Of a stretch of 60,585 nucleotides of DNA, positions 10,137 to 31,342 are shown in pieces. Numbering within the stretch: the stretch's first letter is position 1; every line of letters starts with the position of its first letter. The stretch is from a virus. Location of the stretch: the IMG/VR virus record IMGVR_UViG_3300028195_000002, one strand, 5' to 3'. Below the pieces are notes generated by a model. The model was not told where the DNA came from and ran no database searches. It saw nothing but the letters and a program-made list of their open reading frames with translations. A program made the translations under genes and the position numbers.

Positions 10137-10279
10137 GGTTAAAACGCTCTTTTTTGAGTGCATTAGCCAGTAAAAGATGGTTTCAACTTAATATACAAAG
10201 GAGTAACCCCTTGACATTTCCCAACAATTTACCCAAGATGGATGCAGGCAACAATTATTCTTTTGGGGAGGGACTTTGT

Positions 10280-12061: not shown

Positions 12062-12550
12062 TTATTTTTTCTTCCAGGGCCATTTGAATTTCTTCTTCAT
12101 GGCCGGAATGGCCGGAGTATTGATAGCATTTGTCTTTACTTTTTTAATACCTTCAGCCGTCCTCATTGCCCCCAAGCCCAACATACCCATAATAATAGGA
12201 TATAATTCTGTAGCGTTTATAGTAGGCGGCTGATCAACGTCAGAAGGTATCCAGTTCTTTGCCTGGCACAAACACCATATCCATATTAAAAGAGGATGGA
12301 ATAAAAACTTATACCCCAGGGCAAAACCACCCACCCAACCGATAAAAGGCCGCCATCCTGCTACAAAAATTGATTTGTGTTCTGCTTCAACTTTATTAAT
12401 ATCCATCTGGCCAGCCTGTAATTTGGCATCAATTTCTTTTTCTTGCAGGTTTATAGACATTCTTTCTTCGTCTGACGTGAACATATCGTCCAGGATATTA
12501 CCGCCTGCTTTTATCACACTACCCAGATCCACATTGATTAATCCTGCCAT
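12062..12550 (-). CDS. Holin (3-TM, GTA-holin-like)
   Basis: 162 aa. N-terminal MAGLI...FTSDEER and a coiled region are followed by hydrophobic helices. The gene sits immediately downstream of the endolysin with overlapping stop/start. Confidence 0.6.
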   Translation of the reverse strand: MAGLINVDLGSVIKAGGNILDDMFTSDEERMSINLQEKEIDAKLQAGQMDINKVEAEHKSIFVAGWRPFIGWVGGFALGYKFLFHPLLIWIWCLCQAKNWIPSDVDQPPTINATELYPIIMGMLGLGAMRTAEGIKKVKTNAINTPAIPAMKKKFKWPWKKK

Positions 12551-13101
12551 TATTCAAGCCCTCCCTGTACCCGGTTTATCCATCCACACAAAAACTTTTG
12601 ATTACTAAAAAGCTTGTCTCGGGATCTGCGTTTGTCATTCATGCAAATATTTTTATACCGGAAAACTTTAAAAAGGCTGAAAGTAACAACAAAGATCCTC
12701 TCGTCTTTTTCATCTTCAAGCATTTCATTCATGCATTGGAATGTTTTGTTGCCAAGTATTCCATCCGGAGTTGCACCGATAACCCTTTGCATCATTCTGA
12801 TAGATGTTTTTAACCCGGCATTCACTGCAAAGGCATAAATATGGTAGGCGACGTCCTGGGCTCCGATATCATCACCCCGTATCCGGTCCCAGAACTCTTT
12901 TTTATAAAATCCCCGGACCATGCCCGTTAATTCTCCGTCAAGCTCCCCTGCATCAACCTTAAGCCACCCAGGCCATTGAGGCCAAAAGTTTCTTGCGATG
13001 CCAGCATATGTCATGCCGCCACGATCACCAGAGACGTCATGGAGCTTATAACCACCTTCTAATACCATCACTTTATCAAAACACGGTTTAAAATCTGCCA
13101 T
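12550..13101 (-). CDS. Endolysin, glycoside hydrolase family 108-like muramidase with PG-binding region
   Basis: 183 aa. The FDKVMVLEGGYKLHDVSGDRGGMTYAGI signature (EGGY...D.GG.T..GI) is typical of GH108. Confidence 0.75.
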   Translation of the reverse strand: MADFKPCFDKVMVLEGGYKLHDVSGDRGGMTYAGIARNFWPQWPGWLKVDAGELDGELTGMVRGFYKKEFWDRIRGDDIGAQDVAYHIYAFAVNAGLKTSIRMMQRVIGATPDGILGNKTFQCMNEMLEDEKDERIFVVTFSLFKVFRYKNICMNDKRRSRDKLFSNQKFLCGWINRVQGGLE

Positions 13102-13602: not shown

Positions 13603-16600
13603 TTATAAATCTCTTAGCCGTTCTCGTTTAGGTGCTTTAACATTCCGCCTCATTGCATCTTTAATGCTTTTCTCAGTGATTAATAATCCAAGCCGGGTAA
13701 GTTTTTTATCCCTAATCTCGGAATTAAAATCACGGATATCCGCTTTAATTTTGAGAATATCATGCCGGCTACGTTTTTCAATTGTTTTGTTCATTGCGGC
13801 CTTGAACCGTTTGATAATCTCTGATTTTTTCGTCCTATATCGGGTCTGGGTTTTGTATTCTCCCCATTGGATTTCTTTTTTTGTGGAAACATTTGTCGGG
13901 TTAAAGGAGAGCATCCTTAAGATCATATCAATAGTATCTCCTTTCAACTGCTCCCTACCCCAAAAGACGGGAGAACCTGTCCTCGTTGTTACCCCTGTTG
14001 TAGATTCCCGGATACCTTTTGATATATTCGCTATAGCGGCAGGCGCCATCTTCTCAAATCCTTCTTGAAAATGGCCTTTTGTTATATTCTTGCCACCCTC
14101 AATCCAATCTGCCACGACAGAACCCGGAGCGCCAAAGATATCATAAAATGCGCTCGGTACTCCAAATCGAGTAGCTAAGGACCCCCGTAAATTCACGCCG
14201 TGATCCCCAATGCCCATGATACCATTTCTTGCAATATCGCCCATGCCAAAGGAAGATTCAGCCAGTTTGATTAAACCCTCTTCCGGATCATCTCCGCCCA
14301 GGACGTTGGAAATAGCTTTTGCCACCCCTATAGGCAGAGTTGCCCCGATCCCAAAAATAGCAGGAGCAAAGGCCATGTATGCCGCTGCCTTGTATTGTTT
14401 TTTATCCCATCCCAGGCGAAACATTTCTTGCATATAATTATGTTCAAACGTATGGAAAACATAGCTTGCCTGTAAAACCCGCCCGGCAAGATTCCCGCCC
14501 CTCATTTGATAAGGCCGGTTCGCCTTGGAATAATCACCATGGGCCTTATCAGAGATTTCTTTTGATTTCTCCATCATGGCTGCGTGATCCCATTCGCCCT
14601 TGTGCACCTCTTTCATGGCAAAATATGTGGCTGCAATGGTCGATGCCCGGTTTAATTCCTCTGCTTTGCCAAACATCCACATTGACTTTTCAAGAGCCCA
14701 ATTCCAACCCTTTCCAAGCTTTGAGGATAAAACGTCGAAAGCCTCCCTATTAAACACGGGGGCATCCCACCCTTTTAATTTAATTTCATCAAAGACGTTC
14801 TTTTGTTCTCCTTCAAGCTTATTAGCTCGGTGAAGACTAAAGTTTTTCATTGATCTAACTATGTGGCCAATTGCCTTTTTCAAAGAAACCTGATTGTCTG
14901 TTTCCCCATTCATTGCAGCCGGGACACCAAACGCCATGTTCGTCACATTAACGGCGGCGGAACTGACCCTTAATCCTAAATACTGCCAAACAGCAACCCC
15001 CTTTACCACGCCCAAAACCCTGTCTGCAAATTCTTCATTCCTGAGGATATCCTTTAAGGCTGCCGTTGCTTCTTTATGAGCCACTGCTTGAGTCTTTGCG
15101 TCAAGCTTTCTTTTATCGACAAGGGCAAGGTATTCTTCATAAAGGCCGGTTTTTGCCTGGGTAATGTTTTGCTGTATTTTTCTTGCTTTGGAAACATCCG
15201 ACCATTTCCCAAGAGTCTTTAATTTATCCTGTATTTTTTTAATCTGCCTTTGTTTGGTAATGATATAGTTAGGCGTAGGATTAAAATTAGATTCAAGATC
15301 CCTCCGGAGCCCTTGTAATTGTTTTAATAAATCCCCTTTTAGCTTTTCATCCGCCGGGGAATTTAGGTTTAACTCAGCGAGGTCTCCTTCAAGATCTTCT
15401 ACAGGGCCTTTCTTCTCTTCTTTAAAGTCTTTCCACTTGATATCTCTTCCTGATATGGCGGCGGAGCCCTCTTTCGCAATAATGGCCTTTGCTTTGCTGC
15501 CGGCAGCGGCCTGCATAGCTGACGTTATGGCCGTCACTGGATCAAGTTCATACCCCTGGACAACATCCATGCCTATCGAATCAGACCTTGCAAGCATCCT
15601 GGATCTTGCTCCCCGGCCTTTCAATATGGCATCGTATTGTTTCACCATGGCATCAGCAAAGGCCAAATCCATATCGACTTCAAGCCCGCCTGAATGTAGG
15701 ATAGCGCTTGTCACTTTTTGTTCAAATTCATAAGGGTCTTGCCCTTCGATGTCCTCAAAAGCAATCTCTGGACGATAAGTGTTTTTTAGCCACCGTTCTT
15801 TAAATTTTCCTCCCAGGTGTCTAACTGACTCTTCTATATCATCCTTGAGAGCGCCATATAATATAAAGGTATCTCCTTCCCATTTTGCTTTAATATTTGC
15901 ATCTTCAAGTATCCTTTGTTTGCCCTCATTGCTGATATCTTTCATGGCTTTGTTCAATATCTGCTGCTGTGCAAGGAGAGGTTCAAGGGATTGAAAAAGG
16001 TCTTCCGAAAGTTTTCCGACTTTTTCTATTTCAGTTTTAAACCCTTTCCTTTCGAGTCCTGCCCGATAAGCATTCGCTCCACCGGGAAGCCGACGAGTAT
16101 CAAAGAATTGCATTTGCTTTGCAGACCCTTTTTTATGCCCGATAACGCGCCATTTCCCGGAATTCCTTAGCCTGGGGAAGTAAGACCCCCTCAAGTCACC
16201 CATTCTTTCAGCGGCGGCCCTCAAATCTATTTGAGTGACCCCTTCTTCTGTCTGAATGGTTATTTGTGGTAACGGTTGACCTGCCTTTTCATATGCGGCG
16301 ATAGATTCTTCCAGATTTATGGCAAAATGATGATACAGGTTATGTGACATTTTCCTAAAAGCGATTAAAGCCTCCTGTCCTTCAGGGGAAAAGCCAGACT
16401 CTTCAGCCTCAATCAAAACTCCGTCTTCCCATGCGGCTTCTTTTGTGCCATATGTTCCTATGATTTTTCGAACGCCATTCTTTTTTTTCCAATGCAAAAG
16501 AGTGAATTCATCGTTGTCTTTTTTAACCAAAAAGCCTTTTTTCTCGATATCCCTTTGGGTCAAATATTCTTTGATCTCGGCATATTCTTCTTTGTGCTTT

Positions 16601-19600
16601 TTGGCAAAAGCCTTAAACGTCTCCAAAAGGGAATGGTCCCCTTCATACCACAAGTCCCTTTGAGCATTAAACTTGTGATCGTTTTGTTTTCTTATTACGT
16701 TCCAAAGGCGCTTGTATGCTCCACCAATCTTCTCAGCATTATACATGGTCGTTTTGAAAATGTGCGCCATGGCGGATATATCTTCATTATAATTTTTACC
16801 CTTGTCTTTTCTGTGTTTGATAAGCCCAGTATAAAGATCCGTGGCTTTTTGGATGAAGGTGTCTTCCTGTTCTTCATATTCTAAGTCTGCTGTGGTTTGG
16901 AATTTTCCCTCTTTAGAACCTTTTTGGGACGCTTCACGCGAAAAAATACCACCGCTTTCAACTTGTCTGGCCATCTTTCTTTCGGTCATGCTGGCTATAT
17001 GGAAAAACCCGTCAATTATGTCTGCAATCTTCTGTAAAATTTTACCGATTGCAGTACCTCGATATTGCTCCCGGTCTTCAAGGAGTTGCGCCAGGGCATT
17101 GACCCTGTTTTCCTCTTTATCCTTTCCAAGCTTAAATCTAAGCTGCCCTTTTTTCTTTAATGCTGCAATCTTTCCGTCAAGGACGAATAAATCAGATTGC
17201 GTCAGCATTCCATTGTCAATAAGGAAATGGCCTAACTCATGGTCTCTGGTAAAGTTGCTGGCAAGGTCTTTATTCAGGGTGATCGTATCCCTTTTATGCT
17301 TACCTAGAATAATGCCATCCTTGCCCATTCTGCCGGTTTCAATGGCAAACTGTGTATCGCCTTTGCCCATATCATTTGTGCGGACAATACGCAGGCCATG
17401 GCCATTTTTAAGGCGAATTGATATCTGCCCGTCTTTGGATATAAAAACTTTTTGGCCTTTAAAGCGGGATTGAATATCTTTTAAGCTCACGCCCTGGCCG
17501 GGGAGTTGATCTGTGGAGAAAACAGACGTATCTACTTGTCCTTTCTTTTTATCATAAATGGAAGAATCAACCCATATGTCATCACCCGGGACGTAAGATA
17601 TTGCACCTTCATCCTCCAGCCTCCGCCACATTTTTGTGGGGATCTTCCTGCCGGTCCAATTAGCGTTTCCTTTATTGTCAATATATGCAAGTCCACTTTC
17701 TTGGTCCCGGATACCCTCAAGAATCTCTTTCCTGGAAAGGGGTTTTATATCATCGGATGTGGAGAGTTTTGTAGGAGTGTCGTTGTCTTCTGTATCAGCT
17801 TCTCCTATCCCCAATTCTTCGGGAGAGACTTCTTTGCCTTCGTCTTCAAGCTCTTTTTCCAAGGAGCGCAACTCTTCATGCTTTTCATTCAGCTCTCTAA
17901 GATTTTCAAAGGGAAGCCCTATAAGTTTTTGGGCACGTTCGTTTTCTTCTGTCTTGTCCTTGATCTGCCTTTCCATCGTGGAAATTGCAGAGGGTATCCT
18001 GTTTAACATATTTAAAGATTTGGTAGCGATATTGGAATCATCAAAATATTCATTAAACCTGCCCTCATAAATTCTGGATTCACCAATTATATCAGAGAAC
18101 CCGTTCACAATTCCGAGACTGGCTGTCATTTGAAATTCTTGCCATCCCTTTTCAATGACAACGATAATTTTTGCACCATTGATATCTGCTATTTCTACCT
18201 TTTTGGCCGCCTTAAATTTCCCATCTTTCGTCATGACCGCTTTTTTAACGGCGACTTTTAAGGCCTGGTTAAAATCTTTTTTATTGTCAAATTTCTTTTT
18301 ACCAATGGTGGCATCAAGTTTTGATATGTATTCTGGAAATTTTTCTTGAGCTTTTTGAAGGGTCTTTAAACGTTTTTCATACCGCTCTATATCCCACCCA
18401 TTATCTTTTATGGACCTGGCTATTACCCCCTGATTCCGTCTATGTGCAACTGAAAGAGTTTCGAGCCTTTTCACATCTGCCTGGAGGCCAACCATTTGGA
18501 TTAATCTTTGATCACCCGAAGCTAATGCCGAGGCCATGGCATACTGTGAAGTTTTTGAAACATCCTCTATGGTTCTGACTCCCTTTTCTCCTGCCCAAGC
18601 CTGCTCAATAAATCTGGATTTTCTGGCGACCATTTGCCACATAGTAGAGTCATAACTACCCTCTGTCGCATACCATTTTATAGATACTTCTTCATTCTGA
18701 TTGCCCTGTCTGACAATGCGACCTTGTGGTTGTTCAACGTCTGCCGGGAACCATGGCGGATCAAGATAATGAAGATTCGTTAATCGTGTCTGAGCATTAA
18801 CACCCGTCCCCATTTTTTTTGCAGATCCAAGCATGATTCTCTTTTTGCCTTCCCTGACAGCCTTAAAAAGCCCCTGTTTTTTTTCTGCGGTATTATAATC
18901 GTCAATCCATGCGACATGGCTTCCAGGTATTCCAGCCTCAGTGAATCTTTTTGTTGCCCAGGCCCTGGCATTAAATCCCCTGGTTGCTGCAACATTCTTC
19001 CCAAACCCGACATTATAAAAACAAATAATCCCACCGCCAGGAACAATAGATTTTTTTTCTGACCCGGGGAGAAGGTATTGATTATCTTTTGTCTCTTTGT
19101 ATGATTTGATAATGTCATCAATATATTTATTAAGCTTGCTGTCCGGGTTACTCTTTGCCCCATTCTCCACAAACCGGATATCAATTGCCGCCAGCCTGCC
19201 GTCTGTGATTATATTGATAAGAGGGTCAGGATTGCCGGGTTGTTCTTTTGACGGTTTCCATTTTCGACTTGTTTCTATCCTTGGTTGCAAAACATTTGTC
19301 TGGTATTCTAATAATTCCGGCGTTTTTGATGTCGCCACTATCTCAGGGGAACCGCCTTTAATTTTTGGTCTTTTTACCCTTGTGCCAAGTTGCTTACTTG
19401 TCAGGACATCCGTGAATCGTCTTACTCTGGACATCATTTCCGGAATATTCACAAACTTTGAAAACCTTTCAACTACTTCATATCTACCTGCCGAATTCAT
19501 TTCATAGTCAGATGCCACCAGACCGAACATGCTGGCCCATGCGTCAAAATGCTCAAGCCCGTCACTATCAAGCCCGTTGCGATCGAAAAACCTGTTTATG

Positions 19601-22600
19601 GTATACATTTCACCAATTGTATTTACAATCGGTGTGCCAGAGGCAAACACATGGGACCGATCTTTATTTATGCTTGAAAGCCAAAGGGTCTTAATATAAA
19701 GATCAATGGCCTTTTTTGATCCATTGGTATCTATGCCCTTTACCCGACGGTTTGTTGCAAAATCAAGCTTCCTGAATTCATGTGCTTCATCCACAAACAA
19801 AAAGTCTATACCCATATCTTCAAAGGAAACGACATCATCCCCTTCTCCTATCAGAGAATCAAACCTTTGTTCCGCCTTTTCGATCATTGATTCCATTTTC
19901 TTTATTTTCATTCTTGGAGCATCTTCGTCCTGCATAGTTTCAAGGGCATACTCCATATTGCCGATAAATTCTTTTCGGACAGGTTTGATATTCTCTTCGT
20001 TTGATTTGATAAGATTGAAAGAAGAGTGTGTCATGATGACGGCATCAGGACTATTTAATGTTGCCTGGGAAACAAAGTTTTTTCTATTCTCTTTTTTAAA
20101 ATCCACTTCATCTGCCACCATAATATTAGCCATGGGATAAAGCTCCTGGAATTCCTGCGAAAACTGCCCAAGCATATGGTTAGGTACAACATACATAGGC
20201 TTCCTAACCATCCCTAAGCGTTTCATTTCCATTCCGGCAGCTATCATAGTAAATGTCTTTCCTGACCCGACTGCATGGTTCAAGTATGTATTGCCGGATT
20301 GAATGATTCTCCAAATAGCATCTTTTTGGTGTTGATAAAGAGATATTTTTGTCGTGACCCCGGGCAAGGTTAAATGAGAGCCATCGAACTTCCGTGGGGC
20401 CAGGTTGTTATATTTTCTATTGTATAAGTCAAGGAGCTCTGTTGATCGTTCCATATCGCGCCATACCCATGAAGAAAATTCTTTTCTCATTTTGCTGGCT
20501 TTTTCGTTGGCTTCAGTAGTTGCCTCTTGGTCGACGATTGTTCTTTTCCCGCCATCCGCCGTTTCAATAGCTGCAGTGATCCGGATAGGGTTATTATTGA
20601 CAACGGCCATAAGAATTTCGTTCTTTCCTCTAGCGGTTGTGCTCCAATCGTCAGACGCACTTCTTAACCCCTGGGCTGCCCCTCTGTAATCTAAACCCCA
20701 TGTACCGATTCTTTTGTCATATGACAAATTAGCGGACCTTATACCTAATACGTCCCTGGCAAATTCATTATAGTATTTGGAAGGTATCCATGTCCCACCC
20801 ATCATGACGGAAATATCGCTTGATGATAACGGGTCCGGCTGAACGGCCTTTAATGCTTTTACATTCCTTTGGTATTCAGGGTCCAGTTTCACTGCAAGAG
20901 TTGCCTCTTCAAGCTTTGTGACGACATCCCCAGATAAATATTCATCAGCAAGGACATATTCCTCGTTATCGGGGGCTTTATATATCAGGTCCCCAAGGAC
21001 TTCTAATGTTTCTTTTGCAGGCTTGCCGGCCAATTCCGCAACATGGTCAAGATCAAGGTGCCCTATGCTGTTCAAGGACACTGCAAGGGCATCCGGCACT
21101 GTTTTGATTTTTGGAGTAACTGGCCGCATGATGGTCCGGTCCTTGAGGATGGACGATTTTACAATATTCCCATCATCAAGAATCTTTTCAAGCTGCCATA
21201 CGAGGGTGTATTCTGCGTCATGCCTAAGCGTACTCTTTTTCTTATATCGACGTTCTTCAACCTTCTCTTTAGTGCCATCCTCATTTTTAACCGTTTTCCA
21301 TGCGGAATTATATGCATGAATATTCCCATGTTTTTTAACAAATTTTTTGTATTCCCCTTGAAGATCCTTTAGGGCCGCTTTCCAATCGCCATCGTTTAGC
21401 TGTGCATGATGAGAAAGTTTGATTTTGTCCCTTAACCCGATACAATCTTTAAGCATTACAGCGTCCCGTGCTGATATTTTTTTACGGGAACTTAATGCAA
21501 CGCCTGATCCAAAATTAACCTGCATAAGAGTTTTGTCATCTTTTCCGATATACAGGCCACCTTCTTTTTTGTTCTTTGGATTAAAATCCCTCTCTATTAT
21601 TTCCTTGGCATCGTGGACGGCTTTTTCTTTTGCAGTGGTAGCAGAATAAATTTTCTTTGGAAGTCTTTTTATTGCCTTCCCGAAATGGTCTTCGATATCT
21701 CCATCCAAAGGCATAACCGTATATTCATTTTTGGAATACATTTTCCCGGCCAATGAATTTTGCCCCAGGACCATCTCAGGGTGTTTCTTGAAATATTCAT
21801 TAATCTGGACATCTTTATCATTCCCAAGAGAATCTTTTAATGTTATTCCTGTGGTCCCTGCCCATGCTTCTCCGGATGGTTTTGTGTTTTTCTCTCTTTT
21901 CTTTAAAAACAAGACATCGGTAACGACGTCGGTCCCGGCATTCTTCTTAAAGGCTGTCTGTGGCAACCGGATTGCGCCCACAAGATCTGCACGATCCGTC
22001 ATATACTTTCTTGCCCTGTCATTGACCGCATCCATTGTATATCTACTGGTGACAAAAACAAGCAATCCTCCCGGACGAACCCGGTCAATTGCTTTTGCAA
22101 AAAAATAATTATGGAGAGAAAAAGAATGTTTTCTATATTCCGGGTCCGCAAGAATGGGGATACTGCCAAAGGGTGGATTGCCTATAGCAGCATCAAAGAA
22201 GTTTTTAGGAAGAGACTGTTTGGTAAAATCTGCCTGCATAATATTCTGATTCGGATAAAGCAGCTTTGCAATGCCAGCAGAAACGTGATCCATTTCAATG
22301 CCGGTATATTTTGAATACTTTCTCATTTTTTCAGGGAGAAGACCCACAAAATTACCGACACCCATACCAGGCTCAAGGATTTTGCCACCCTTAAAGCCCA
22401 TGTCATTAAGAGCTTTATAAATAGATGTTATAACTTTTTCGCTTGTGTAATGGGCGTATTGTGTGCTTTTCGCTGCGGTTTTGATCTCTTCCGGCGTAAG
22501 AAGTTTGGTCAACCGGGTAACTGAATCTTTCCACTCATAACTTGCCCAATTTGGCAAAACTTCTTTTTGTTGGGCATACCCAGGAAACATATTGTTGGCA

Positions 22601-25600
22601 AGTTCTGACGAACCCCACCCAACATATTGAGCAAGAATTTTTTGTTCGTTCTGTGTGGCAAATCTCTTTTCTTCTACAATTTTTTTATACAGGGCTATGG
22701 CAGCGAGGTTGCTTTCAGCCGTTTTTTTCCAGCCTCCGGAACGATCTATGCTTCCGGGCTCGATTCGGTGATCTCTTCCTCGTCGCTGAATTCCAGATGG
22801 TTTGCCAGAACTTCCTCCCACGCCTGGTGTAGCCCCGTCTCCATCGCCTGTACTGCGCTTTGAAGATTTTCGTTTTCCGGTGGATTTGTCCTGCACGTCA
22901 TCAACACTTGATCGCTCACCTGATCGTAATCCTCCATCAACGCTTTTTCCGTCTGCGTCAAGAATTGATTCAGGCCCATTGTTTTCTTTAGCTGCAGGAA
23001 CGTCTTCGGCGCTTTTGCTTCCAGGGCTTGAGATATCATCTTCTTTCTTTGATCCTGATACACTTGCCCTTCTACTGTTATCGGCATTACCATTTTCTAT
23101 GTCCTCCTTGGTTTTAACTCCATCATATTCCTCGGTTACTTCTTCGTCAACCCATCTGTGAAAATAAGGGGTCGCTTTATGAGAAAGATTTTCAATTGCC
23201 ACTGCCACAAATTCAGCAATTGATTTGCCCGTATCCTTGGCATGACCCCATGCTGAATTCAGCCGGTCCTTGACCTGGGCATAAATATTTTCATCCAGTT
23301 CCTCGGTAGAAAAAGAACCCCTTTCCCCAAAAAGGGCATTGATGGCCTTGAAATCATCCATCATCTTCCCGGCGCTTTCTTTTATTTTATCCTTGGCCGC
23401 CTTTATTTTCTCTTTATCTTTCTGGGCCTGGGCCTGCTTGTCCCATTCTGCTTTCAGCTTTTCTTTTGTAGTGGGTTTCTTCTCGGGCTCTGATTTTGCC
23501 TGGGGTTCGGGTTGGATGTCTCCGACGGTTTCCTTTATATCTTCATTTATTTGATTTTCTTCTGCATCAAGAGCCTCGACACCGGTGGTCTCATCTATCA
23601 AAGAAACAAGCCCGTCCCGATCAGTCCACGCCTCTTTGGCTTTTTTATAATCAATCCGCCCGCCATCTATAAGCCTTGCTGCATATTCCCTTGCTTTTAT
23701 AAGGTTTCCTCTCCAATCGGAAGGCGGTTCATAACTATCGACAAAGCCATCGATTTCTTCTGAAGTTAACATCTCATAGCTTTTCTTTTCAAAAAGGGTG
23801 TCAAGAGAATCAAATGTCGAAACCCCGCCGGGGACAAGCCTTCCCTTTTGATGAACAATAATGCCGGGGGAAGCTTCATAAGACCTCATGCCATCTTTAT
23901 CTTGATATACGTTTTCGCCGTCTTTATTTTTTCCGACAAGAGAGGTTGTGTCTTTTGGTATCCCCTTGTTGCTTTTGGGTTCGGTCCCTTTCTGTTCTTC
24001 CTCAATACGGTCATATTCGGCTTGAACATTTTTATTATAATCAGGGTCAGCAAGCTTGGTTTCTTCTTTTTTTGCCTGATCTAACATCTGAAAGGCTTCA
24101 TTTTTATATTGAGGAGTGACGCCTGAAACGTCGATATCATACTTTTTGAATTCTGTAATTTCTTCGGCTTTAAAAAGGGCCTCGCCTTTGGCTTCTGGTT
24201 TTTTCTTTTTATCATCAGCAAAAAAAGAATCCATTGCATCAAGCATTTCTTCTTTTGTCTGCTCAGGCTCTTCCTTCTTCACAAAAGGCTCTTTAATCAG
24301 AGTCTCCCGCCCGGTATCATCTTTTTTGACCCGCCAGTTTTTCCCCTCTTTTTTCACAATGGTTCCAGATTGAACACCTTTTGTTTTGGTATCCCAGGAA
24401 ACGGCCTGGCCAACTTGAAAGCCGTCAACCTTTTTATCCGGACTATGGGCATCAAGGGGTTTAGAGTTTTTAAAAGAACCATCAAGGCCGCCGGCCAATG
24501 GCTTTTTAGTCCTCTTTCCGTCTTTGACCCAACCCCTGAAAGTCTCTGTATCCATTTCAGTGATTTCCCCAAAACCATTCCAGCCCTTCTCATAATTGGA
24601 CAGATACAAGTCTTTGGCTTCTTTGGCTGATTCAGTCCCCATTATGACTTTATGCTCATCAAACTGGCCCTGCTCATTCACCTGATCTACAACGAACACC
24701 TTGGGGCTTGTTTCTGTTTTCGGCTTTACAACAACGTCAACTTGATCACCATCTTTCCCAAGAGTTCTTTTGAAATATCCATAGTGGCCGTGCATTTTGG
24801 ATTCCCACTTTTTGCCGGATTTGTTTGTCCCTTTTCTTACAGATCCATCCGGGTTTTCAATGGAGATATCAAAGTTATCTATCTTAATATGGACTTTCTT
24901 GTAATTCCCGGCTTCTTTCTGTGCATCTGTCGGATCTGTCTCGACCTCTTCTGGGGATACCTCATGTTCAGGACCAGGCTCCTTGGGTTCCGGTTTCTTT
25001 CTTTGCTGGATGATAATGCCTTCGTCTGTTTTTATTGCTCTATGTTCTACGTCAACAAACCCTTCGTCCATTTTTTTGGCTTCTTGCTTTCCACCACCCA
25101 GTGTGGTTTTTTCTGATACGGCAAGAGACGCCCATTCTCCACTATCAAACAAGGCTTTTTGCTTTTTATCATATCTGCCCCAATCTTCGCCTCTTTTCGA
25201 TACTTTTTGAGTAGCAGGAGTAGTCCTTTCTTCTTTTCCCTCTATATCGGCCTGTTTTGGGCTCATAAAAGGATCGTCTTGACCCACCATTGCGTTTATG
25301 GCATCAATCTCGTTTTGTTGATCAATCTCGCCTTGCGCGATAATATGGGCTTGTTCTTCTTCCGATATCTCCCTTATTGGTTCCTGAGGTATGGATTGTG
25401 TTTCTACATGGGGCGCTTCTGGTTTTTTCTGAACAGGCGGCATAAAGGCATTAAGATTTTTTACGGACTTGTCCTCGATATCCCCGAGTTCTTTTTTTGT
25501 ATCTTTTGCCAAAACATTGAAAGCATTTTTTAATCTCGGATCATCGGCTTGGACTTCTTCTTCCTCAACAATGGGAATACTACCCCCAGGTTCATCGTCT

Positions 25601-26628
25601 GCAGTCGGCGGCGGATTCTTTTTCTCTTTTATCCCGGATATTACACCATGAGGCACAGCACCCATAAAACCGCCAACGGCACCAGCCCCGGCGGATTCTC
25701 CAATTCTTAAAAAATTATCCTTGGTCAATAATTTTTCATCAGTGTTGGCAACAACATTGAGGATGGCAAATGTTTCCTGCCCGGCTTCCTGCAATGCCTC
25801 TGCCGGCATGGTCTTTATTAATTGTTTGGCAATGGCCTTTGTGATACTGCCTTTTCCGTTTTTAACGGCATCAAACATGGTATCAATCAGCCTGACATTA
25901 CCACCAGTAAATTCAAGGGCGGTCGCAAGGCTTCCAAAAAAGACGGCGGACCACGGAGCCTTTACTCCATGCTCGTTTCTAAGCTCCCCATACATACTGC
26001 CGGTTTCAAGAGGAAATATGCCTGCCGCGACACCGGTCTTGGCGCCTATCTTTGTAGCTTGCTTTTTAATGCCTTTTTTAATAGCAACTTCCATGCCCTG
26101 TTTTATAAACTGTTTTCCGGCAACTAACCCGGCTCCACCACCCAGAACAGAGCTAATGGCAACCCCGCCCATTATAGGGACAAGGTCTGCCCCAGTGCCC
26201 AAGATCCATCCTGTCTTACTGTCTGAAAATTTATCTTTTGGGTGAAGGGAGGCTTCATGCTCATGTTCCTTATACCCTTCCATGCCAAAGCCTTGGATCG
26301 CTTTTCCGGTATCTTCAGCCCCCATGTTTTGCAAGACGTTACCGCCAAGAGCCGCCATACCATATGTAGAACTTGCAATACCATGGGCGCCACGAACAAC
26401 GCCCCTTTGGACATCTCCCATGTTCTGCTCGTTAAAGTTCCGGGTAACAACATCCTCATAATCGGTTTTCTCCATTTTAAGGATATTCCGGTTTATATCG
26501 GCATCTGTGAAATTATTCTCTTTTAAGGAAGCATAATCCTTTTCAGTATACCCATTCTCATTCAAGAGATACTGAGCGATCTCGCTTTCAGACATTTCCT
26601 TTAAGGCTGATTTTAAGTCAAAAGGCAT
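13603..26628 (-). CDS. Giant 4,341-aa polyvalent virion/ejected protein (DarB-like N6-adenine MTase + SNF2 helicase core, zincin motif, hydrophobic termini)
   Basis: A single uninterrupted ORF of 13,026 nt. The sub-features below list the motifs. It has Gly-rich hydrophobic segments near both ends and sits among structural genes. Confidence 0.85.
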   Translation of the reverse strand: MPFDLKSALKEMSESEIAQYLLNENGYTEKDYASLKENNFTDADINRNILKMEKTDYEDVVTRNFNEQNMGDVQRGVVRGAHGIASSTYGMAALGGNVLQNMGAEDTGKAIQGFGMEGYKEHEHEASLHPKDKFSDSKTGWILGTGADLVPIMGGVAISSVLGGGAGLVAGKQFIKQGMEVAIKKGIKKQATKIGAKTGVAAGIFPLETGSMYGELRNEHGVKAPWSAVFFGSLATALEFTGGNVRLIDTMFDAVKNGKGSITKAIAKQLIKTMPAEALQEAGQETFAILNVVANTDEKLLTKDNFLRIGESAGAGAVGGFMGAVPHGVISGIKEKKNPPPTADDEPGGSIPIVEEEEVQADDPRLKNAFNVLAKDTKKELGDIEDKSVKNLNAFMPPVQKKPEAPHVETQSIPQEPIREISEEEQAHIIAQGEIDQQNEIDAINAMVGQDDPFMSPKQADIEGKEERTTPATQKVSKRGEDWGRYDKKQKALFDSGEWASLAVSEKTTLGGGKQEAKKMDEGFVDVEHRAIKTDEGIIIQQRKKPEPKEPGPEHEVSPEEVETDPTDAQKEAGNYKKVHIKIDNFDISIENPDGSVRKGTNKSGKKWESKMHGHYGYFKRTLGKDGDQVDVVVKPKTETSPKVFVVDQVNEQGQFDEHKVIMGTESAKEAKDLYLSNYEKGWNGFGEITEMDTETFRGWVKDGKRTKKPLAGGLDGSFKNSKPLDAHSPDKKVDGFQVGQAVSWDTKTKGVQSGTIVKKEGKNWRVKKDDTGRETLIKEPFVKKEEPEQTKEEMLDAMDSFFADDKKKKPEAKGEALFKAEEITEFKKYDIDVSGVTPQYKNEAFQMLDQAKKEETKLADPDYNKNVQAEYDRIEEEQKGTEPKSNKGIPKDTTSLVGKNKDGENVYQDKDGMRSYEASPGIIVHQKGRLVPGGVSTFDSLDTLFEKKSYEMLTSEEIDGFVDSYEPPSDWRGNLIKAREYAARLIDGGRIDYKKAKEAWTDRDGLVSLIDETTGVEALDAEENQINEDIKETVGDIQPEPQAKSEPEKKPTTKEKLKAEWDKQAQAQKDKEKIKAAKDKIKESAGKMMDDFKAINALFGERGSFSTEELDENIYAQVKDRLNSAWGHAKDTGKSIAEFVAVAIENLSHKATPYFHRWVDEEVTEEYDGVKTKEDIENGNADNSRRASVSGSKKEDDISSPGSKSAEDVPAAKENNGPESILDADGKSVDGGLRSGERSSVDDVQDKSTGKRKSSKRSTGDGDGATPGVGGSSGKPSGIQRRGRDHRIEPGSIDRSGGWKKTAESNLAAIALYKKIVEEKRFATQNEQKILAQYVGWGSSELANNMFPGYAQQKEVLPNWASYEWKDSVTRLTKLLTPEEIKTAAKSTQYAHYTSEKVITSIYKALNDMGFKGGKILEPGMGVGNFVGLLPEKMRKYSKYTGIEMDHVSAGIAKLLYPNQNIMQADFTKQSLPKNFFDAAIGNPPFGSIPILADPEYRKHSFSLHNYFFAKAIDRVRPGGLLVFVTSRYTMDAVNDRARKYMTDRADLVGAIRLPQTAFKKNAGTDVVTDVLFLKKREKNTKPSGEAWAGTTGITLKDSLGNDKDVQINEYFKKHPEMVLGQNSLAGKMYSKNEYTVMPLDGDIEDHFGKAIKRLPKKIYSATTAKEKAVHDAKEIIERDFNPKNKKEGGLYIGKDDKTLMQVNFGSGVALSSRKKISARDAVMLKDCIGLRDKIKLSHHAQLNDGDWKAALKDLQGEYKKFVKKHGNIHAYNSAWKTVKNEDGTKEKVEERRYKKKSTLRHDAEYTLVWQLEKILDDGNIVKSSILKDRTIMRPVTPKIKTVPDALAVSLNSIGHLDLDHVAELAGKPAKETLEVLGDLIYKAPDNEEYVLADEYLSGDVVTKLEEATLAVKLDPEYQRNVKALKAVQPDPLSSSDISVMMGGTWIPSKYYNEFARDVLGIRSANLSYDKRIGTWGLDYRGAAQGLRSASDDWSTTARGKNEILMAVVNNNPIRITAAIETADGGKRTIVDQEATTEANEKASKMRKEFSSWVWRDMERSTELLDLYNRKYNNLAPRKFDGSHLTLPGVTTKISLYQHQKDAIWRIIQSGNTYLNHAVGSGKTFTMIAAGMEMKRLGMVRKPMYVVPNHMLGQFSQEFQELYPMANIMVADEVDFKKENRKNFVSQATLNSPDAVIMTHSSFNLIKSNEENIKPVRKEFIGNMEYALETMQDEDAPRMKIKKMESMIEKAEQRFDSLIGEGDDVVSFEDMGIDFLFVDEAHEFRKLDFATNRRVKGIDTNGSKKAIDLYIKTLWLSSINKDRSHVFASGTPIVNTIGEMYTINRFFDRNGLDSDGLEHFDAWASMFGLVASDYEMNSAGRYEVVERFSKFVNIPEMMSRVRRFTDVLTSKQLGTRVKRPKIKGGSPEIVATSKTPELLEYQTNVLQPRIETSRKWKPSKEQPGNPDPLINIITDGRLAAIDIRFVENGAKSNPDSKLNKYIDDIIKSYKETKDNQYLLPGSEKKSIVPGGGIICFYNVGFGKNVAATRGFNARAWATKRFTEAGIPGSHVAWIDDYNTAEKKQGLFKAVREGKKRIMLGSAKKMGTGVNAQTRLTNLHYLDPPWFPADVEQPQGRIVRQGNQNEEVSIKWYATEGSYDSTMWQMVARKSRFIEQAWAGEKGVRTIEDVSKTSQYAMASALASGDQRLIQMVGLQADVKRLETLSVAHRRNQGVIARSIKDNGWDIERYEKRLKTLQKAQEKFPEYISKLDATIGKKKFDNKKDFNQALKVAVKKAVMTKDGKFKAAKKVEIADINGAKIIVVIEKGWQEFQMTASLGIVNGFSDIIGESRIYEGRFNEYFDDSNIATKSLNMLNRIPSAISTMERQIKDKTEENERAQKLIGLPFENLRELNEKHEELRSLEKELEDEGKEVSPEELGIGEADTEDNDTPTKLSTSDDIKPLSRKEILEGIRDQESGLAYIDNKGNANWTGRKIPTKMWRRLEDEGAISYVPGDDIWVDSSIYDKKKGQVDTSVFSTDQLPGQGVSLKDIQSRFKGQKVFISKDGQISIRLKNGHGLRIVRTNDMGKGDTQFAIETGRMGKDGIILGKHKRDTITLNKDLASNFTRDHELGHFLIDNGMLTQSDLFVLDGKIAALKKKGQLRFKLGKDKEENRVNALAQLLEDREQYRGTAIGKILQKIADIIDGFFHIASMTERKMARQVESGGIFSREASQKGSKEGKFQTTADLEYEEQEDTFIQKATDLYTGLIKHRKDKGKNYNEDISAMAHIFKTTMYNAEKIGGAYKRLWNVIRKQNDHKFNAQRDLWYEGDHSLLETFKAFAKKHKEEYAEIKEYLTQRDIEKKGFLVKKDNDEFTLLHWKKKNGVRKIIGTYGTKEAAWEDGVLIEAEESGFSPEGQEALIAFRKMSHNLYHHFAINLEESIAAYEKAGQPLPQITIQTEEGVTQIDLRAAAERMGDLRGSYFPRLRNSGKWRVIGHKKGSAKQMQFFDTRRLPGGANAYRAGLERKGFKTEIEKVGKLSEDLFQSLEPLLAQQQILNKAMKDISNEGKQRILEDANIKAKWEGDTFILYGALKDDIEESVRHLGGKFKERWLKNTYRPEIAFEDIEGQDPYEFEQKVTSAILHSGGLEVDMDLAFADAMVKQYDAILKGRGARSRMLARSDSIGMDVVQGYELDPVTAITSAMQAAAGSKAKAIIAKEGSAAISGRDIKWKDFKEEKKGPVEDLEGDLAELNLNSPADEKLKGDLLKQLQGLRRDLESNFNPTPNYIITKQRQIKKIQDKLKTLGKWSDVSKARKIQQNITQAKTGLYEEYLALVDKRKLDAKTQAVAHKEATAALKDILRNEEFADRVLGVVKGVAVWQYLGLRVSSAAVNVTNMAFGVPAAMNGETDNQVSLKKAIGHIVRSMKNFSLHRANKLEGEQKNVFDEIKLKGWDAPVFNREAFDVLSSKLGKGWNWALEKSMWMFGKAEELNRASTIAATYFAMKEVHKGEWDHAAMMEKSKEISDKAHGDYSKANRPYQMRGGNLAGRVLQASYVFHTFEHNYMQEMFRLGWDKKQYKAAAYMAFAPAIFGIGATLPIGVAKAISNVLGGDDPEEGLIKLAESSFGMGDIARNGIMGIGDHGVNLRGSLATRFGVPSAFYDIFGAPGSVVADWIEGGKNITKGHFQEGFEKMAPAAIANISKGIRESTTGVTTRTGSPVFWGREQLKGDTIDMILRMLSFNPTNVSTKKEIQWGEYKTQTRYRTKKSEIIKRFKAAMNKTIEKRSRHDILKIKADIRDFNSEIRDKKLTRLGLLITEKSIKDAMRRNVKAPKRERLRDL
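17227..17241 (-). other. HEXXH zincin metallopeptidase motif (HELGH) in the giant protein
   Basis: DHELGHFLI at about aa 3129-3137. Confidence 0.4.
18500..20400 (-). other. SNF2/SF2 helicase domain of the giant protein (approximate bounds)
   Basis: Motif I AVGSGKTF (20251-20274), motif II DEAHEFRK (about 19768-19791), ASGTPIVN, and motif VI QPQGRIVRQGNQ (18697-18732). Confidence 0.7.
21700..22650 (-). other. N6-adenine DNA methyltransferase domain of the giant protein (approximate bounds)
   Basis: SAM motif ILEPGMGVGNFVG (about 22343-22380) and catalytic GNPPFG (22165-22179). It is preceded by the QYVGWGSS segment typical of N12-class/DarB-like methylases. Confidence 0.7.
24637..24909 (-). 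other. Inorganic-pyrophosphatase-like segment within the giant protein (approx. aa 574-664)
   Basis: HYGYFKRTLGKDGDQVDVVV resembles the family I PPase core NYGYI..TL..DGDPVDVLV. An upstream IENPDG and a downstream DEHKV are also present. Confidence 0.4.
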
Positions 26629-26633
26629 TTTGT

Positions 26634-28550
26634 CTATAATCCTTTCTTTGCAGATTGTTTGATCATCTTGATTATTTGATCTTCCGTGGCGTTCTCGAAT
26701 CTACTTTTTAGCGTTTTGACGATTGTTTTTATTTTTTGAAGATCCGTTTCAATTCCGGCATCCCTTAATGCTTTTCCTATTTTCCCTTCGCCCCATTTCG
26801 GAAAATCAGGATGAACGTTCTTGTTTATGAGTCCTTGCACAATGGTCAAAGGAGTTGTGCCGGGCTCATCGCTCCCGGGCATGGCACTGAACCTGTAAAT
26901 ATTTTTAATTTCTTCTTTTGACATCTGGTATATGGGTTGCTTGCCTTTGGTCTCTTTAACGTCGGTTCCCATGGCGTTTGGTTTTTTCTCAAGTTCATCC
27001 TCTTTTTTTGCAGAAGAATTAAACTTATCCCCTTTTTTTTTATTTTCAACCGGGTCCACCCCAATCCGTTTTGTGCCTGGGGGTAACACTGAAACCTTGA
27101 AGGCTTCTTTTTTACCGCCTGGCATCCATCCGTTTTCATCAATCACCTGTCCGCCCTCATCATAAAGAGAAAGGCCCAACCCATTGGCAATCTTTAAAAG
27201 CTGAGGCATATCCGTTGCTCTCACCGTGCCGGAAACGTCTCCGGTTTCAAGATCTTGTTCCATCCCGAACCCCGCCGCCTGCATAGCAAAAGACTTCACG
27301 TTTGCAGCGTCTATGCCTTTATCCCGTTTCGGATTAATTCTTGTAAGGCCCATCTTGATATAATTATCAAACTCTGCCTTGCTTTTGGCTGTATAGCTAT
27401 TCCCCTTATCATCATAAAGTTTTTCATCTATGACCTTATCGCCCAGGGCATTCGTTTTTTTTGTGTAATAATTTTTTTCAGCATCGCTTTTATTGGCAGA
27501 CGCCGTCCTTTGGATCGCCAAAGCTTTTTCTGAATCAATCCCGGCAAGATCTTTCTCTCGTTTGAGATCTTCAACAGAATTCCCAGAAGAATAAAAAGCG
27601 TCCCATGATTTATATTCTCCCAATAACTCTCCGGTTTTTTCATCTTTAACCCTGATATCCACCCCGCCGGTTTGGTCTGTGACTTTTACCTGGGGTATCA
27701 CAAGAGTTGATTTCCCGGTACTCGTTTTGCCATGCCGGGGGTTTGCTTCTGCCACAAGGTTCTCTTGTCGCTTAGCTTCCATTTTAGATGCCGCAACAGA
27801 AATAAATTCTTTTTCTCCCAAAGCATTCATTTCCGTTATGACTTCATCAATGTGTTTTGTTCCGTTGTTCTGAAGTTTTCCTGTTCTCCTGTCAAAATAT
27901 TCCAAAGAAAATGATTTTGTTTCTGGATCATATTCTCCGAGCTGGTACGGGGAAAAAGTTAATTCTTTTGACATTTGTACCAATCCATTAACCGCCATAT
28001 CAGTTTTCCCGGCTTTCAAGGCATCATTAACAAGGTTTCTGCTATTAAAAAAGTTTTTAGCATGCTTCTCGATAATGGGAAGCCGATTTTGCATAAATGT
28101 TTTTTGGGCCTCAGCGGTCTTCCCGTAAAGCCCTATCACATTTGCCAAAGATTTTTGGCCTACAACCCCTGCCGTTAAATTTGTAGGGATTTTATCAAAT
28201 GGTTGCCCAGGGTTCTCTGACATCCATGTGGATATTTCGCTGCTTCTTCCCCTAACACCGTCGGCCTCTTGAGCGTCAGCAATTCCCAGGTCCGTATCAA
28301 GTCCCTTTAAATAATCTTCTTTTACGGAGATGCCGATATCTGCAGGCGTACCTTCCGGCAATTTCCCTGTTTCCTGCATCGTGCCCAAGGCGGACCTGTG
28401 TTGATCTTTTTCATCCAGCCGGGTTTTTCTGTCGTCCTGCTGATGCTTGAATGTGGTGTTCCTCTGCCCCATGGCCTGAATGCTGTTTAAGGTATTGGCA
28501 ACTCCCATTAAGCTTGCCCCGATTTCATCCCGTGGATGTCTGTAAGTCAT
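26634..28550 (-). CDS. Hypothetical virion-associated protein
   Basis: 638-aa ORF immediately upstream of the giant gene (5-nt gap). No motif recognised. Confidence 0.55.
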   Translation of the reverse strand: MTYRHPRDEIGASLMGVANTLNSIQAMGQRNTTFKHQQDDRKTRLDEKDQHRSALGTMQETGKLPEGTPADIGISVKEDYLKGLDTDLGIADAQEADGVRGRSSEISTWMSENPGQPFDKIPTNLTAGVVGQKSLANVIGLYGKTAEAQKTFMQNRLPIIEKHAKNFFNSRNLVNDALKAGKTDMAVNGLVQMSKELTFSPYQLGEYDPETKSFSLEYFDRRTGKLQNNGTKHIDEVITEMNALGEKEFISVAASKMEAKRQENLVAEANPRHGKTSTGKSTLVIPQVKVTDQTGGVDIRVKDEKTGELLGEYKSWDAFYSSGNSVEDLKREKDLAGIDSEKALAIQRTASANKSDAEKNYYTKKTNALGDKVIDEKLYDDKGNSYTAKSKAEFDNYIKMGLTRINPKRDKGIDAANVKSFAMQAAGFGMEQDLETGDVSGTVRATDMPQLLKIANGLGLSLYDEGGQVIDENGWMPGGKKEAFKVSVLPPGTKRIGVDPVENKKKGDKFNSSAKKEDELEKKPNAMGTDVKETKGKQPIYQMSKEEIKNIYRFSAMPGSDEPGTTPLTIVQGLINKNVHPDFPKWGEGKIGKALRDAGIETDLQKIKTIVKTLKSRFENATEDQIIKMIKQSAKKGL

Positions 28551-28562
28551 TGTTATAACTCC

Positions 28563-28838
28563 TTATGAAAGTAAATATGAACCAATACCAAGCGCTGCAC
28601 CAATGCCAAGAGTAATAGGCCCTCCTATAGCCGCCATCCCGACGGCACCCGGTGCTGCCATCAGGCTCCCGACCGTTGCCGCTGCCCCTACGCCACCCAT
28701 GCCAGCATTTATAGCACCCCCGACGCTCGGCCCAGGATCTCGATTCGCCGGGATATTCTTCATCATATTCCCGTAAGTTCCTGCAGCCTGGCCCATTCCG
28801 TTCATAGCTTTGCCAATTGGATTTTCAATCTCATACAT
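28563..28838 (-). CDS. Gly/Ala-rich small membrane protein
   Basis: 91 aa with a GGVGAAATVGSLMAAPGAVGMAAIGGPITLGIGAALGIG hydrophobic glycine-zipper-like region. Confidence 0.45.
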   Translation of the reverse strand: MYEIENPIGKAMNGMGQAAGTYGNMMKNIPANRDPGPSVGGAINAGMGGVGAAATVGSLMAAPGAVGMAAIGGPITLGIGAALGIGSYLLS

Positions 28839-28840
28839 TT

Positions 28841-29515
28841 TTAATACCCCATCGCATTCGTTAATCGAGCGTATTTTTCTTGCTCCGCTCCGCTCCTTGC
28901 CGTTGTTCTCGCCCCACTTATTGATTTTGCACGGTTTATAGCGTTTGTATTCGTCATAGACGCGAACCTGCCCGAATTCGGATTAATTCCCATTCTTGCA
29001 GCATCACGACCCATGACAGCCCGTGACCCGGCAAATGCCTGTGCAGCGTCCGCGCCAGCTTGATTCACTCGGTCCGTAACGTTAACTCCATCTATCGACT
29101 CTTTAAAAAAAGCATTCCTGACCGGTGCTTTTTCTCCTATGGCGGTTAGATCATCTGCATTCTTTGCCATCGCTAAGTCTGTTTGCCCGGGAAGAAGGGA
29201 GAGAGCCGATTTGCTTTGAGCCGCCCCAAGCTCGACTTGTCCTGGAAGCAAATCCCTGTCTGCTTGCATTTTTTCTGTATTGTAGGCAGTTTCAAGCGGT
29301 ATCATATCCATGTTGGCCTTAATTTTGGCTTGTTCCATGGGCTTATAATCGGTTTCCCAAAATTTATAATACTCGTCCGCCATGCCCTGCTGGGACTCAG
29401 CAATCGTAGCCATTCGAGCGTTATATGCGGCATCATAGGTATCCCCGGCAGAACTCCCGCCTTTAAAATAAAGCAATTTGCGTCTAAATTTAAACGGCCC
29501 CATTCGATTTGTCAT
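28841..29515 (-). CDS. Hypothetical virion-associated protein
   Basis: 224-aa ORF in the structural operon. Confidence 0.5.
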   Translation of the reverse strand: MTNRMGPFKFRRKLLYFKGGSSAGDTYDAAYNARMATIAESQQGMADEYYKFWETDYKPMEQAKIKANMDMIPLETAYNTEKMQADRDLLPGQVELGAAQSKSALSLLPGQTDLAMAKNADDLTAIGEKAPVRNAFFKESIDGVNVTDRVNQAGADAAQAFAGSRAVMGRDAARMGINPNSGRFASMTNTNAINRAKSISGARTTARSGAEQEKYARLTNAMGY

Positions 29516-30039: not shown

Positions 30040-30114
30040 TATTGTGACGCTCCTTGTAGAAACCCGTTTTTATTACTGCATTAAACCTTTCTGGCAATAA
30101 ACTATCAAACCTTT

Positions 30115-31341: not shown

Positions 31342-31342
31342 T

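Follow-up and report, generated by a model that had tools for sequence, protein, structure and literature searches.

A giant DarB-like polyvalent protein, probably carried in the virion, is encoded ahead of the lysis genes of a podophage-like genome

The stretch of DNA analysed here (the window) is the 60,585-nucleotide (nt) IMG/VR virus record IMGVR_UViG_3300028195_000002, in which nearly all genes lie on the minus strand. One gene at 13603..26628 (-), starting with ATG, encodes a polyvalent DarB-like protein of 4,341 amino acids (aa) with a mass of 485.6 kDa and a pI of 8.5. The 127 nt at positions 1-127 are identical to those at positions 60459-60585, at the other end of the window, which indicates a circular short-read assembly of ~60,458 bp; the window is thus a circularly closed assembly and probably a complete genome, 21.5% of which is taken up by this single open reading frame (ORF). 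By homology and gene position, we propose that this temperate-looking, podophage-like genome probably encodes a giant polyvalent virion protein of the DarB-like kind, which would be packaged, ejected with the DNA and blunt restriction.

An earlier note on this DNA, made from the letters alone, had described an uninterrupted minus-strand ORF of 13,026 nt, and one stop-free frame was indeed confirmed. The terminal stop is the only stop codon in the frame of the giant gene, and the other five frames over the same 13 kb contain 107-381 stops; 4,341 codons without an internal stop exclude a chance ORF. The gene might instead be an assembly chimera or an artefactual fusion of adjacent genes, since the window is, as its terminal overlap shows, a short-read metagenome assembly, and the only other assembly of the phage breaks within the gene. 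This independent ENA contig (L006, ERZ27250242 k141_135559) is 99.6% identical to window positions 24762-34327, which comprise the first ~620 codons of the giant gene and 7.7 kb of upstream genes. From window position 24762 (codon ~622), within the part that encodes the InPase domain, the contig continues with 217 nt of unrelated AT-rich sequence (L006 9567-9783), and this divergence yields a shortened gene call of 628 aa. We read the break as a feature of the other assembly and not as a fault of the window: either a junction artefact at the end of a chimeric contig, or a genuine variant or insertion. In addition to the stop-free frame, at least one independent homologue aligns across each module junction of the giant protein in a single BLAST alignment (P0013 for aa 1-785, P0044 for aa 878-2923, P0042 for aa 1247-3256 and P0012 for aa 2998-4341). 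Its closest relative, P0012 (3,636 aa), is 54% identical over aa 1160-2960 and 73% identical over aa 2998-4341, and single ORFs of 4,602-4,877 aa with the same order occur in cultured phages. A chimera is therefore highly improbable, and an assembly artefact was rejected on the junction-spanning alignments to independent homologues. The ORF at 13603-26628 is one genuine late gene in a single reading frame.

The DarB-like core, with a post-helicase region that extends to aa ~2930, is encoded at 17839..22857 (-) and matches phrog_10089. It is laid out as a predicted N6-adenine methyltransferase (MTase; aa ~1300-1700), a connector, an SNF2/SF2 helicase (aa ~2094-2660) and the post-helicase region. 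An N12-class or DarB-like N6-adenine MTase had been suggested from two motifs, EPGMGVGNF and NPPFG. These lie at aa 1419 (S-adenosylmethionine-binding motif I) and aa 1484 (motif IV), respectively, and the Pfam family Eco57I exceeded its cutoff of 25.3 with 31.4 bits in one Pfam scan and 33.5 bits in a second; a weak match to TaqI was obtained against the PDB (E 0.003). The SNF2-type helicase, also proposed by the earlier note (GSGKT, DEAH and QxxGRxxRxG), lies C-terminal to the MTase in the same polypeptide, with GSGKT at aa 2121, DEAH at aa 2280 and QPQGRIVRQG at aa 2633. When this piece was scanned with Pfam, ResIII, SNF2-rel_dom and DEAD scored above cutoff and Helicase_C below it. The giant protein as a whole scored 1,888.6 bits against phrog_10089 ('DarB-like antirestriction', 4,647 profile positions). 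Significant matches for both the MTase and the helicase were thus found in phrog_10089 and Pfam. Furthermore, P1 DarB aligned with the giant protein in three collinear high-scoring segment pairs (E 1e-11 to 2e-18), with 28% identity in the MTase, 22% in the N-lobe of the helicase and 27% in its C-lobe.

Cultured relatives were sought in a set of 50,697 phage records. Megablast of the giant gene against these records gave no match, and tblastn with aa 1300-2950 matched 156 of them. The best tblastn matches were Bcep22-like Burkholderia podophages, at 45-46% identity over 99% of the query, followed by Ralstonia phages at ~45%, in which the matching genes are annotated as DarB-like, and Pseudoalteromonas phage vB_PalP_Y7 (Y7) at 41%. 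By BLASTP, Bcep22 gp75 aligned over aa 1258-2930 only (45.4% identity over 1,698 aa; gp75 aa 1542-3176), and the giant protein of phage Y7 aligned both in the core (40.4%) and at the C-terminus (aa 3874-4337, 22%). Bcep22 gp75 is a 4,602-aa 'DarB-like antirestriction' protein encoded between the virion structural genes and the holin, endolysin and spanin genes; the Y7 giant protein has 4,675 aa, and giant gp30 of the Ochrobactrum phage POI1126 has 4,841 aa and precedes the endolysin gene. Together with the collinear P1 DarB alignment and the InPase and HExxH modules described below, these matches bear out the suggestion that the gene encodes a polyvalent protein with a DarB-like core.

The N-terminal part of the protein precedes this core. 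A Gly/Ala-rich, partly hydrophobic N-module occupies aa ~65-335 (25624..26436 (-)); the Gly-rich hydrophobic N-terminal segments noticed earlier are present by composition, as aa 70-340 contain 16% Gly and 12% Ala with hydrophobic peaks at aa 139-175, 222-240 and 312-333. Pfam, PHROG and NCBIfam searches with the N-module gave no match, and its profile did not detect the proteins of Bcep22, Y7, POI1126 or Vibrio phage douglas; the module is kept at the N-terminus of 17 metagenomic giant proteins, and the close fragments P0002 and P0003 are 72-74% identical to it. The InPase domain (family-I pyrophosphatase of polyvalent proteins) at aa 568-702 (24523..24927 (-)) covered the full length of the PF18823 profile (E 4.4e-50, 169.5 bits against a cutoff of 26.8), in agreement with the pyrophosphatase-like segment seen by eye. 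It carries the motif DGDQVD at aa 626, is 45-51% identical to the InPase segments of POI1126, PBC5, Atu_ph08 and Vibrio phage douglas, and aligns with the C-terminal portion of a phage portal protein of known structure (PDB 9b41_L, E 2.6e-29). The InPase domain has been described as lacking a beta-hairpin and being fused to portals, and has been predicted to be packaged (Iyer et al., 2017, PMC5512222). The Lys/Glu/Asp-rich middle region that follows, delimited by composition (aa 720-1189, 23062..24471 (-)), had no family match in Pfam, NCBIfam or PHROGs, and only a few metagenomic proteins have portions of it. It leads into the long Ser/Gly/Asp-rich linker already noted (aa 1190-1295, 22744..23061 (-)), which contains 18% Ser, 17% Gly and 12% Asp.

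C-terminal to the core, a zincin-like module at aa ~3035-3250 (16879..17526 (-)), assigned by motif conservation, carries HELGH at aa 3130, the zincin motif that had been picked out by eye. In 84 aligned homologous segments H3130, E3131 and H3134 were conserved at 100% and E3173 at 98%, and all four were invariant in an 18-sequence subset alignment (A2). HExxH followed by a Glu ~40 residues downstream is the gluzincin ligand pattern. The fold match was not significant: PDB profiles reached thermolysin at E 1.3 only, members of the module gave scattered single-member Pfam matches (M76, Tox-MPTase3 and DUF5700, all E > 0.06), and hhalign against the metallopeptidase region of P1 DdrB gave 38% probability over 33 columns, covering a strand and the HExxH segment. 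A single-sequence AlphaFold model of aa 2940-3550 had a predicted local distance difference test (pLDDT) score of 35.8 and was discarded. Because these profile searches were not significant, we call the module zincin-like on its conserved motif only; by sequence, the HEAFH segment found in Bcep22 and POI1126 belongs to a different family. The HExxH region of P1 DdrB is a metallopeptidase according to Iyer et al. (PMC5512222). As a separate observation, P1 DdrB (L007 24542-27529) contains WHELGHHLEY, with the same HELGH pentapeptide, and was missed by the profile of the window module.

Module B (aa ~3251-3740, 15409..16878 (-)) is marked by conserved MGDxRGxYxPRxR and RGxR...GYExD motifs in a 70-sequence alignment and was not detected in Bcep22, Y7, POI1126 or Vibrio phage douglas. 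The span aa 2940-3850 had no match in Pfam, NCBIfam or PHROGs and none by tblastn among the cultured phage records. The protein ends with a PLxRFG or 'tail-700' domain (aa ~3845-4325, 13654..15096 (-)), in which a GGDDPEE motif is invariant (alignment A1). NCBIfam NF032893 ('PLxRFG domain-containing protein', model 'tail-700') scored 104.7 bits against a cutoff of 100 with aa 3980-4341 alone, and the C-terminus also matches the C-terminal positions of phrog_10089. Its hydrophobic segments at aa 3871-3906, 4079-4112 and 4155-4173 agree with the earlier description of more than 1,000 residues after HELGH that end in hydrophobic helices. The domain is 22-25% identical to the C-termini of the Y7, POI1126, Vibrio phage douglas and Itty13 proteins, and tblastn extended it at 21-25% to large proteins of F116/H66-like Pseudomonas phages, Klebsiella LASTA, Erwinia Stean and others. 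Several phage PLxRFG proteins are annotated as structural; we found no functional description of PLxRFG in the literature. Structure prediction and Foldseek searches of the pieces, a check that had been suggested, gave weak results: an AF2 model of the domain from 8 sequences was all-helical with a pLDDT of 58. Foldseek of this model against the PDB gave nothing at E < 0.1 and returned only helical membrane transporters at a TM-score of ~0.13; with no significant match, we conclude nothing from the model.

An exhaustive HMMER scan with aa 2940-3850 recovered 389 relatives among 1.84 billion representative proteins, nearly all of 2,000-5,600 aa, so that an empty word-index search with the same span was a sensitivity artefact. 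IMG/VR scans with the giant protein and with alignment A2 gave no usable loci. To map the modules, the whole protein was compared by BLAST with the 150 best of the 389 relatives, and counts were taken from the 102 of at least 2,000 aa. The order is N-module, InPase, the rare middle region, MTase-helicase core, HExxH module, module B and PLxRFG. In this sample, which was chosen by similarity to aa 2940-3850 and whose proportions are therefore biased toward the C-terminal modules, module B was present in 77/102, PLxRFG in 76/102, the HExxH module in 64/102, MTase-helicase in ~24/102, InPase in 18/102 and the N-module in 17/102; none of the 102 relatives has the complete set. In place of the DarB core, P0013 carries InPase, LPD1, MuF_C and RadC-JAB, and P0015 carries a 2H phosphoesterase and DUF3560. 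All occurrences found of the N-module, the zincin-like module and module B were in giant proteins of uncultivated origin. By these alignments the picture is of a constant C-terminal zincin-B-PLxRFG backbone with variable enzyme cargo. We put forward, with some reservation, that the conserved, cysteine-free C-terminal ~1,300 aa could be a 'delivery chassis' that carries interchangeable cargo through the tail into the host in a very large, mostly uncultivated group of short-tailed phages, and that the HExxH module might free the cargo after entry. Candidate cargo would be the DarB core, InPase, MuF_C, RadC-JAB and 2H phosphoesterase.

The same counts bear on a different reading, in which the main role of the protein is structural: as an ejection or core protein it would be the functional counterpart of T7 gp14/15/16 or P22 gp7/16/20 and form or gate a trans-envelope conduit, and its enzyme domains would be dispensable passengers that play no antirestriction role. 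The non-enzymatic C-terminal modules are the most conserved (module B and PLxRFG, compared with MTase-helicase), phage Itty13 encodes a stand-alone PLxRFG protein of 630 aa adjoining its lysis genes, and the N-terminal wall hydrolases of Bcep22 and POI1126 recall T7 gp16; cysteine depletion and hydrophobic helices point the same way. However, no similarity to T7 or P22 ejection proteins was detectable with Pfam, PHROGs, the PDB or Foldseek, and the catalytic motifs of the cargo enzymes (MTase, helicase and InPase) are all intact, which argues for selection on activity. We consider this reading rather unlikely, and it does not exclude the proposal made at the outset.

Cysteine is nearly absent from the giant protein, with 2 Cys in 4,341 residues (0.05%), compared with 1.13% in the other 41 minus-strand ORFs of the window (binomial p = 8e-19). 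The giant proteins of four cultured phages have none at all: 0/4,602 in Bcep22 gp75, 0/4,675 in phage Y7, 0/4,841 in POI1126 gp30 and 0/3,026 in Vibrio phage douglas. P1 DarB has 9 in 2,255 (0.4%), and the median of the 102 metagenomic relatives is 0.03%. Avoidance of disulfides would fit unfolded passage through a narrow channel and an oxidising periplasm. Our literature search found no paper on cysteine depletion in ejection proteins.

The surroundings of the gene are those of a late operon. In the direction of transcription, the order is large terminase (49389-50813 (-)), portal (47305-49392 (-)), major head protein (44349-45437 (-)), internal virion protein (39779..41389 (-); phrog_511, E 4e-109), tail-fibre-like genes (36268-39779 (-)) and a diversity-generating retroelement, followed by four small or unassigned ORFs, a 638-aa ORF, the giant gene, a 103-aa ORF, the endolysin and the holin. 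The internal virion protein is ~30-31% identical to Bcep22 gp67, POI1126 gp21 and Vibrio phage douglas VPAG_00068, and the best cultured relatives of the portal, at 28-30%, are POI1126, CSP3, JC1, Bcep22, Microcystis phage Mwe-JY07 and Klebsiella phage LASTA. The 638-aa ORF directly upstream (26634..28550 (-)) has 0 Cys and no family match and is probably a co-transcribed virion protein. It ends 5 nt before the start of the giant gene, whose stop lies 9 nt from the next ORF, which places the gene in a tightly packed late operon. Downstream, the lysis cassette (12062..13101 (-)) matches phrog_315 and phrog_3427 and comprises an endolysin (12550-13101 (-); Glyco_hydro_108 and PG_binding_3) and a holin (12062-12550 (-); GTA_holin_3TM). 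With tail and virion genes upstream and endolysin and holin downstream, the position between structural and lysis genes given by the earlier note was correct, and it is one where an internal protein destined for ejection would be expected.

A tape-measure protein was considered and rejected, as genes for a tail tube or sheath are lacking and the relatives belong to podophages. The tail module contains a complete diversity-generating retroelement (31698-35107 (-)), composed of a tail-like 568-aa target gene (33401-35107 (-)) with the variable repeat at its C-terminus (33414-33526), a bAvd-like ORF (32975-33370 (-); PF22296), the template repeat (32845-32957 (-)) and a reverse transcriptase (31698-32984 (-); phrog_1423, E 6e-107; RVT_1). 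Template and variable repeats are 83% identical, and 16 of their 19 differences fall at template adenines. A further tail-module ORF of 385 aa (35111-36268 (-)) has a short zf-HC2 match (anti-sigma-type zinc finger, E 2.5e-6) and repeats in common with large 'tail protein' PHROGs. The plus strand carries a single gene of any size, a 448-aa ORF (10154-11500 (+)) at a local flip of GC and AT skew, with a weak integrase match to phrog_216 (E 3e-5) and no match in Pfam; by this weak match, the phage may be temperate. A tRNA search of the window found none.

The placement matches that in Bcep22, POI1126 and JC1, where the gene also lies between virion and lysis genes, and virion association of homologues has been published. 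JC1 gp69, which takes up 22.1% of its genome, was represented by 51 unique peptides in caesium chloride (CsCl)-purified virions by mass spectrometry (PMC9144972); the same JC1 paper also cites virion mass spectrometry of Bcep22 by Gill et al. (PMC9144972). In phage P1, DarB forms part of the head and acts in cis to protect incoming DNA from type I restriction (PMC5512222). These data bear on yet another possibility, that the protein is an unpackaged cytoplasmic MTase-helicase that modifies or replicates progeny DNA and is encoded in the late operon by chance. MTase-helicase fusions do occur in non-virion contexts (PMC5512222), and the authors of the Atu_ph08 genome noted that the DarB-like protein is its only replication-like function (PMC6630229). 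Against this stand the detection of homologues in purified virions (PMC9144972), the location of the gene between virion and lysis genes in every relative examined, the structural annotation of the PLxRFG domain in several phages and an extreme cysteine depletion that would be unexpected for a purely cytoplasmic enzyme. We regard this possibility as quite improbable.

As a packaged antirestriction protein, the product could work as follows, with its activities, packaging and ejection read from homologues and gene position. The 486-kDa protein would be made alongside the other virion proteins and packed inside the capsid, and at infection it would pass out in extended form through the portal and short tail, either together with the DNA or before it, a step that its near-total lack of Cys fits. 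The Gly-rich N-module and the hydrophobic helical PLxRFG domain may serve packaging, ejection or envelope crossing, and the conservation pattern suggests that the zincin-B-PLxRFG portion of ~1,300 aa would act as the constant delivery backbone. By homology, the MTase-SNF2 helicase pair might travel along the entering DNA and, as has been proposed for P1 DarB, guard it in cis from type I-like restriction by methylating or shielding it. The InPase may remove pyrophosphate or a nucleotide-derived signal. The HExxH module might cut the polyprotein into working pieces or be needed for encapsidation. Zincin-like metallopeptidases are the commonest hub domain of polyvalent proteins and have been proposed to act in polyprotein autoprocessing (Iyer et al., 2017, PMC5512222), and in the virion RNA polymerase (vRNAP) of phage N4 an HExxH domain lies within the region needed for encapsidation (PMC5512222).

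Several points weigh against this proposal. The phage is known here from assembled sequence alone, and we know of no podophage giant homologue for which antirestriction activity has been demonstrated. The zincin assignment comes from motif conservation with profile searches that were not significant, and structure prediction of the pieces failed or was weak. No peptidoglycan hydrolase domain was matched by Pfam or NCBIfam at aa 1-560 or 700-1310, even at E <= 1, whereas Bcep22 has SLT and POI1126 has Hydrolase_2 and M15; a wall-cutting role like that of T7 gp16 is thus absent or located elsewhere. Finally, tblastn of P1 DarA, Hdf, DdrA, DdrB and Ulx against the window gave no match at E <= 0.1, so that any packaging of the protein would follow a different route than in P1. 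Packaging of P1 DarB requires DarA, Hdf, DdrA and others (PMC9144972). The accessory Dar proteins are absent from Lessieviruses (PMC9144972), and DarA is absent from Atu_ph08 and Bcep22 (PMC6630229).

The existence, size and core domain set of such proteins are already in the literature, and the finding is mostly confirmatory. It adds a low-GC phage lineage, probably from a marine or sediment habitat, to those with giant virion proteins of the Bcep22 and PBC5 types and points to the modularity of these giants, with a constant C-terminal backbone and swappable enzyme cargo. The family-wide near-absence of Cys offers a simple, testable clue to how half-megadalton proteins might cross the tail and periplasm unfolded. 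Should cargo delivery by the backbone be demonstrated, it could serve to bring selected enzymes into bacteria along with phage DNA.

The closest known system is the gp75 type of Lessieviruses (Bcep22, BcepIL02, DC1, BcepMigl and JC1), together with related Ralstonia phages and Y7. There, too, a single ORF of 4,500-4,700 aa makes up ~22% of a ~60-kb podophage genome, closes the virion module and is followed by the lysis genes. The MTase-helicase core is 40-46% identical over ~1,700 aa, the C-terminal domain, portal and internal virion protein are related, and cysteine is essentially lacking. Unlike Bcep22, the window protein has neither an SLT or other wall hydrolase nor a match to LPD3 or LPD38, and it has an InPase that is absent from Bcep22. 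Neither Bcep22 nor Y7 has a detectable N-module, zincin-like module or module B, and the GC content is 43% here compared with ~65% in the Burkholderia phages.

The PBC5-type giants of alphaproteobacterial podophages (Ochrobactrum POI1126 gp30, Agrobacterium Atu_ph08 gp21 and that of Sinorhizobium PBC5) share with the window protein the InPase, MTase, SNF2 helicase and a PLxRFG-like C-terminus, in this order within one polypeptide encoded before the endolysin, and the window also shares with Atu_ph08 a holin of the three-transmembrane (3TM) gene transfer agent (GTA) type (PMC6630229). Their core is only ~35% identical, and POI1126 carries Hydrolase_2, Peptidase_M15, LPD3 and LPD39, with a HEAFH motif in a region that the zincin-module profile of the window misses. 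By Pfam, the LPD3 that follows the helicase and the LPD38 or LPD39 near the C-terminus in Bcep22 and POI1126 are absent from the window protein. Atu_ph08 gp21 is a DarB-like protein of 4,877 aa with N-terminal wall-hydrolase and peptidase domains, a kind of protein described as common among PBC5-like phages, and the SLT domain of Bcep22 gp75 was noted in the same paper (PMC6630229).

P1 DarB (2,255 aa) has the same MTase-then-helicase order with collinear similarity of 22-28%, but it is half the size, lacks the InPase, HExxH, B and PLxRFG modules and belongs to a myovirus. Iyer et al. (2017) defined polyvalent proteins and described a 'DNA methylase-helicase dyad' typified by DarB (PMC5512222). 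As in proteins of that kind, unrelated enzyme domains (InPase, MTase, helicase and HExxH) are joined here in one late-operon polypeptide, and InPase, the methylase-helicase pair and HExxH metallopeptidase-like modules are among the themes named there (PMC5512222); the HExxH module of the window, however, has no significant match to Pfam metallopeptidase models. The N4 vRNAP is a giant ejected podophage protein with HExxH, whereas the window protein contains no RNA polymerase.

The earlier note had found the size and domain combination unfamiliar for a podovirus-like genome. In several phage groups, however, the virion module ends with the gene for a giant DarB-like protein of 3,000-4,900 aa, next to the lysis genes, and the combination is documented in Bcep22-like and PBC5-like phages and in Y7. 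Since size, position and domain types are all published, that remark does not stand. Beyond the literature consulted here are only the backbone-and-cargo pattern and the family-wide cysteine depletion. Judged by its homology, the giant protein is a divergent member of the known Bcep22- and PBC5-type class and not a new kind, and its distinguishing marks, on the same comparison, are its module set and the modules known so far only from uncultivated phages.

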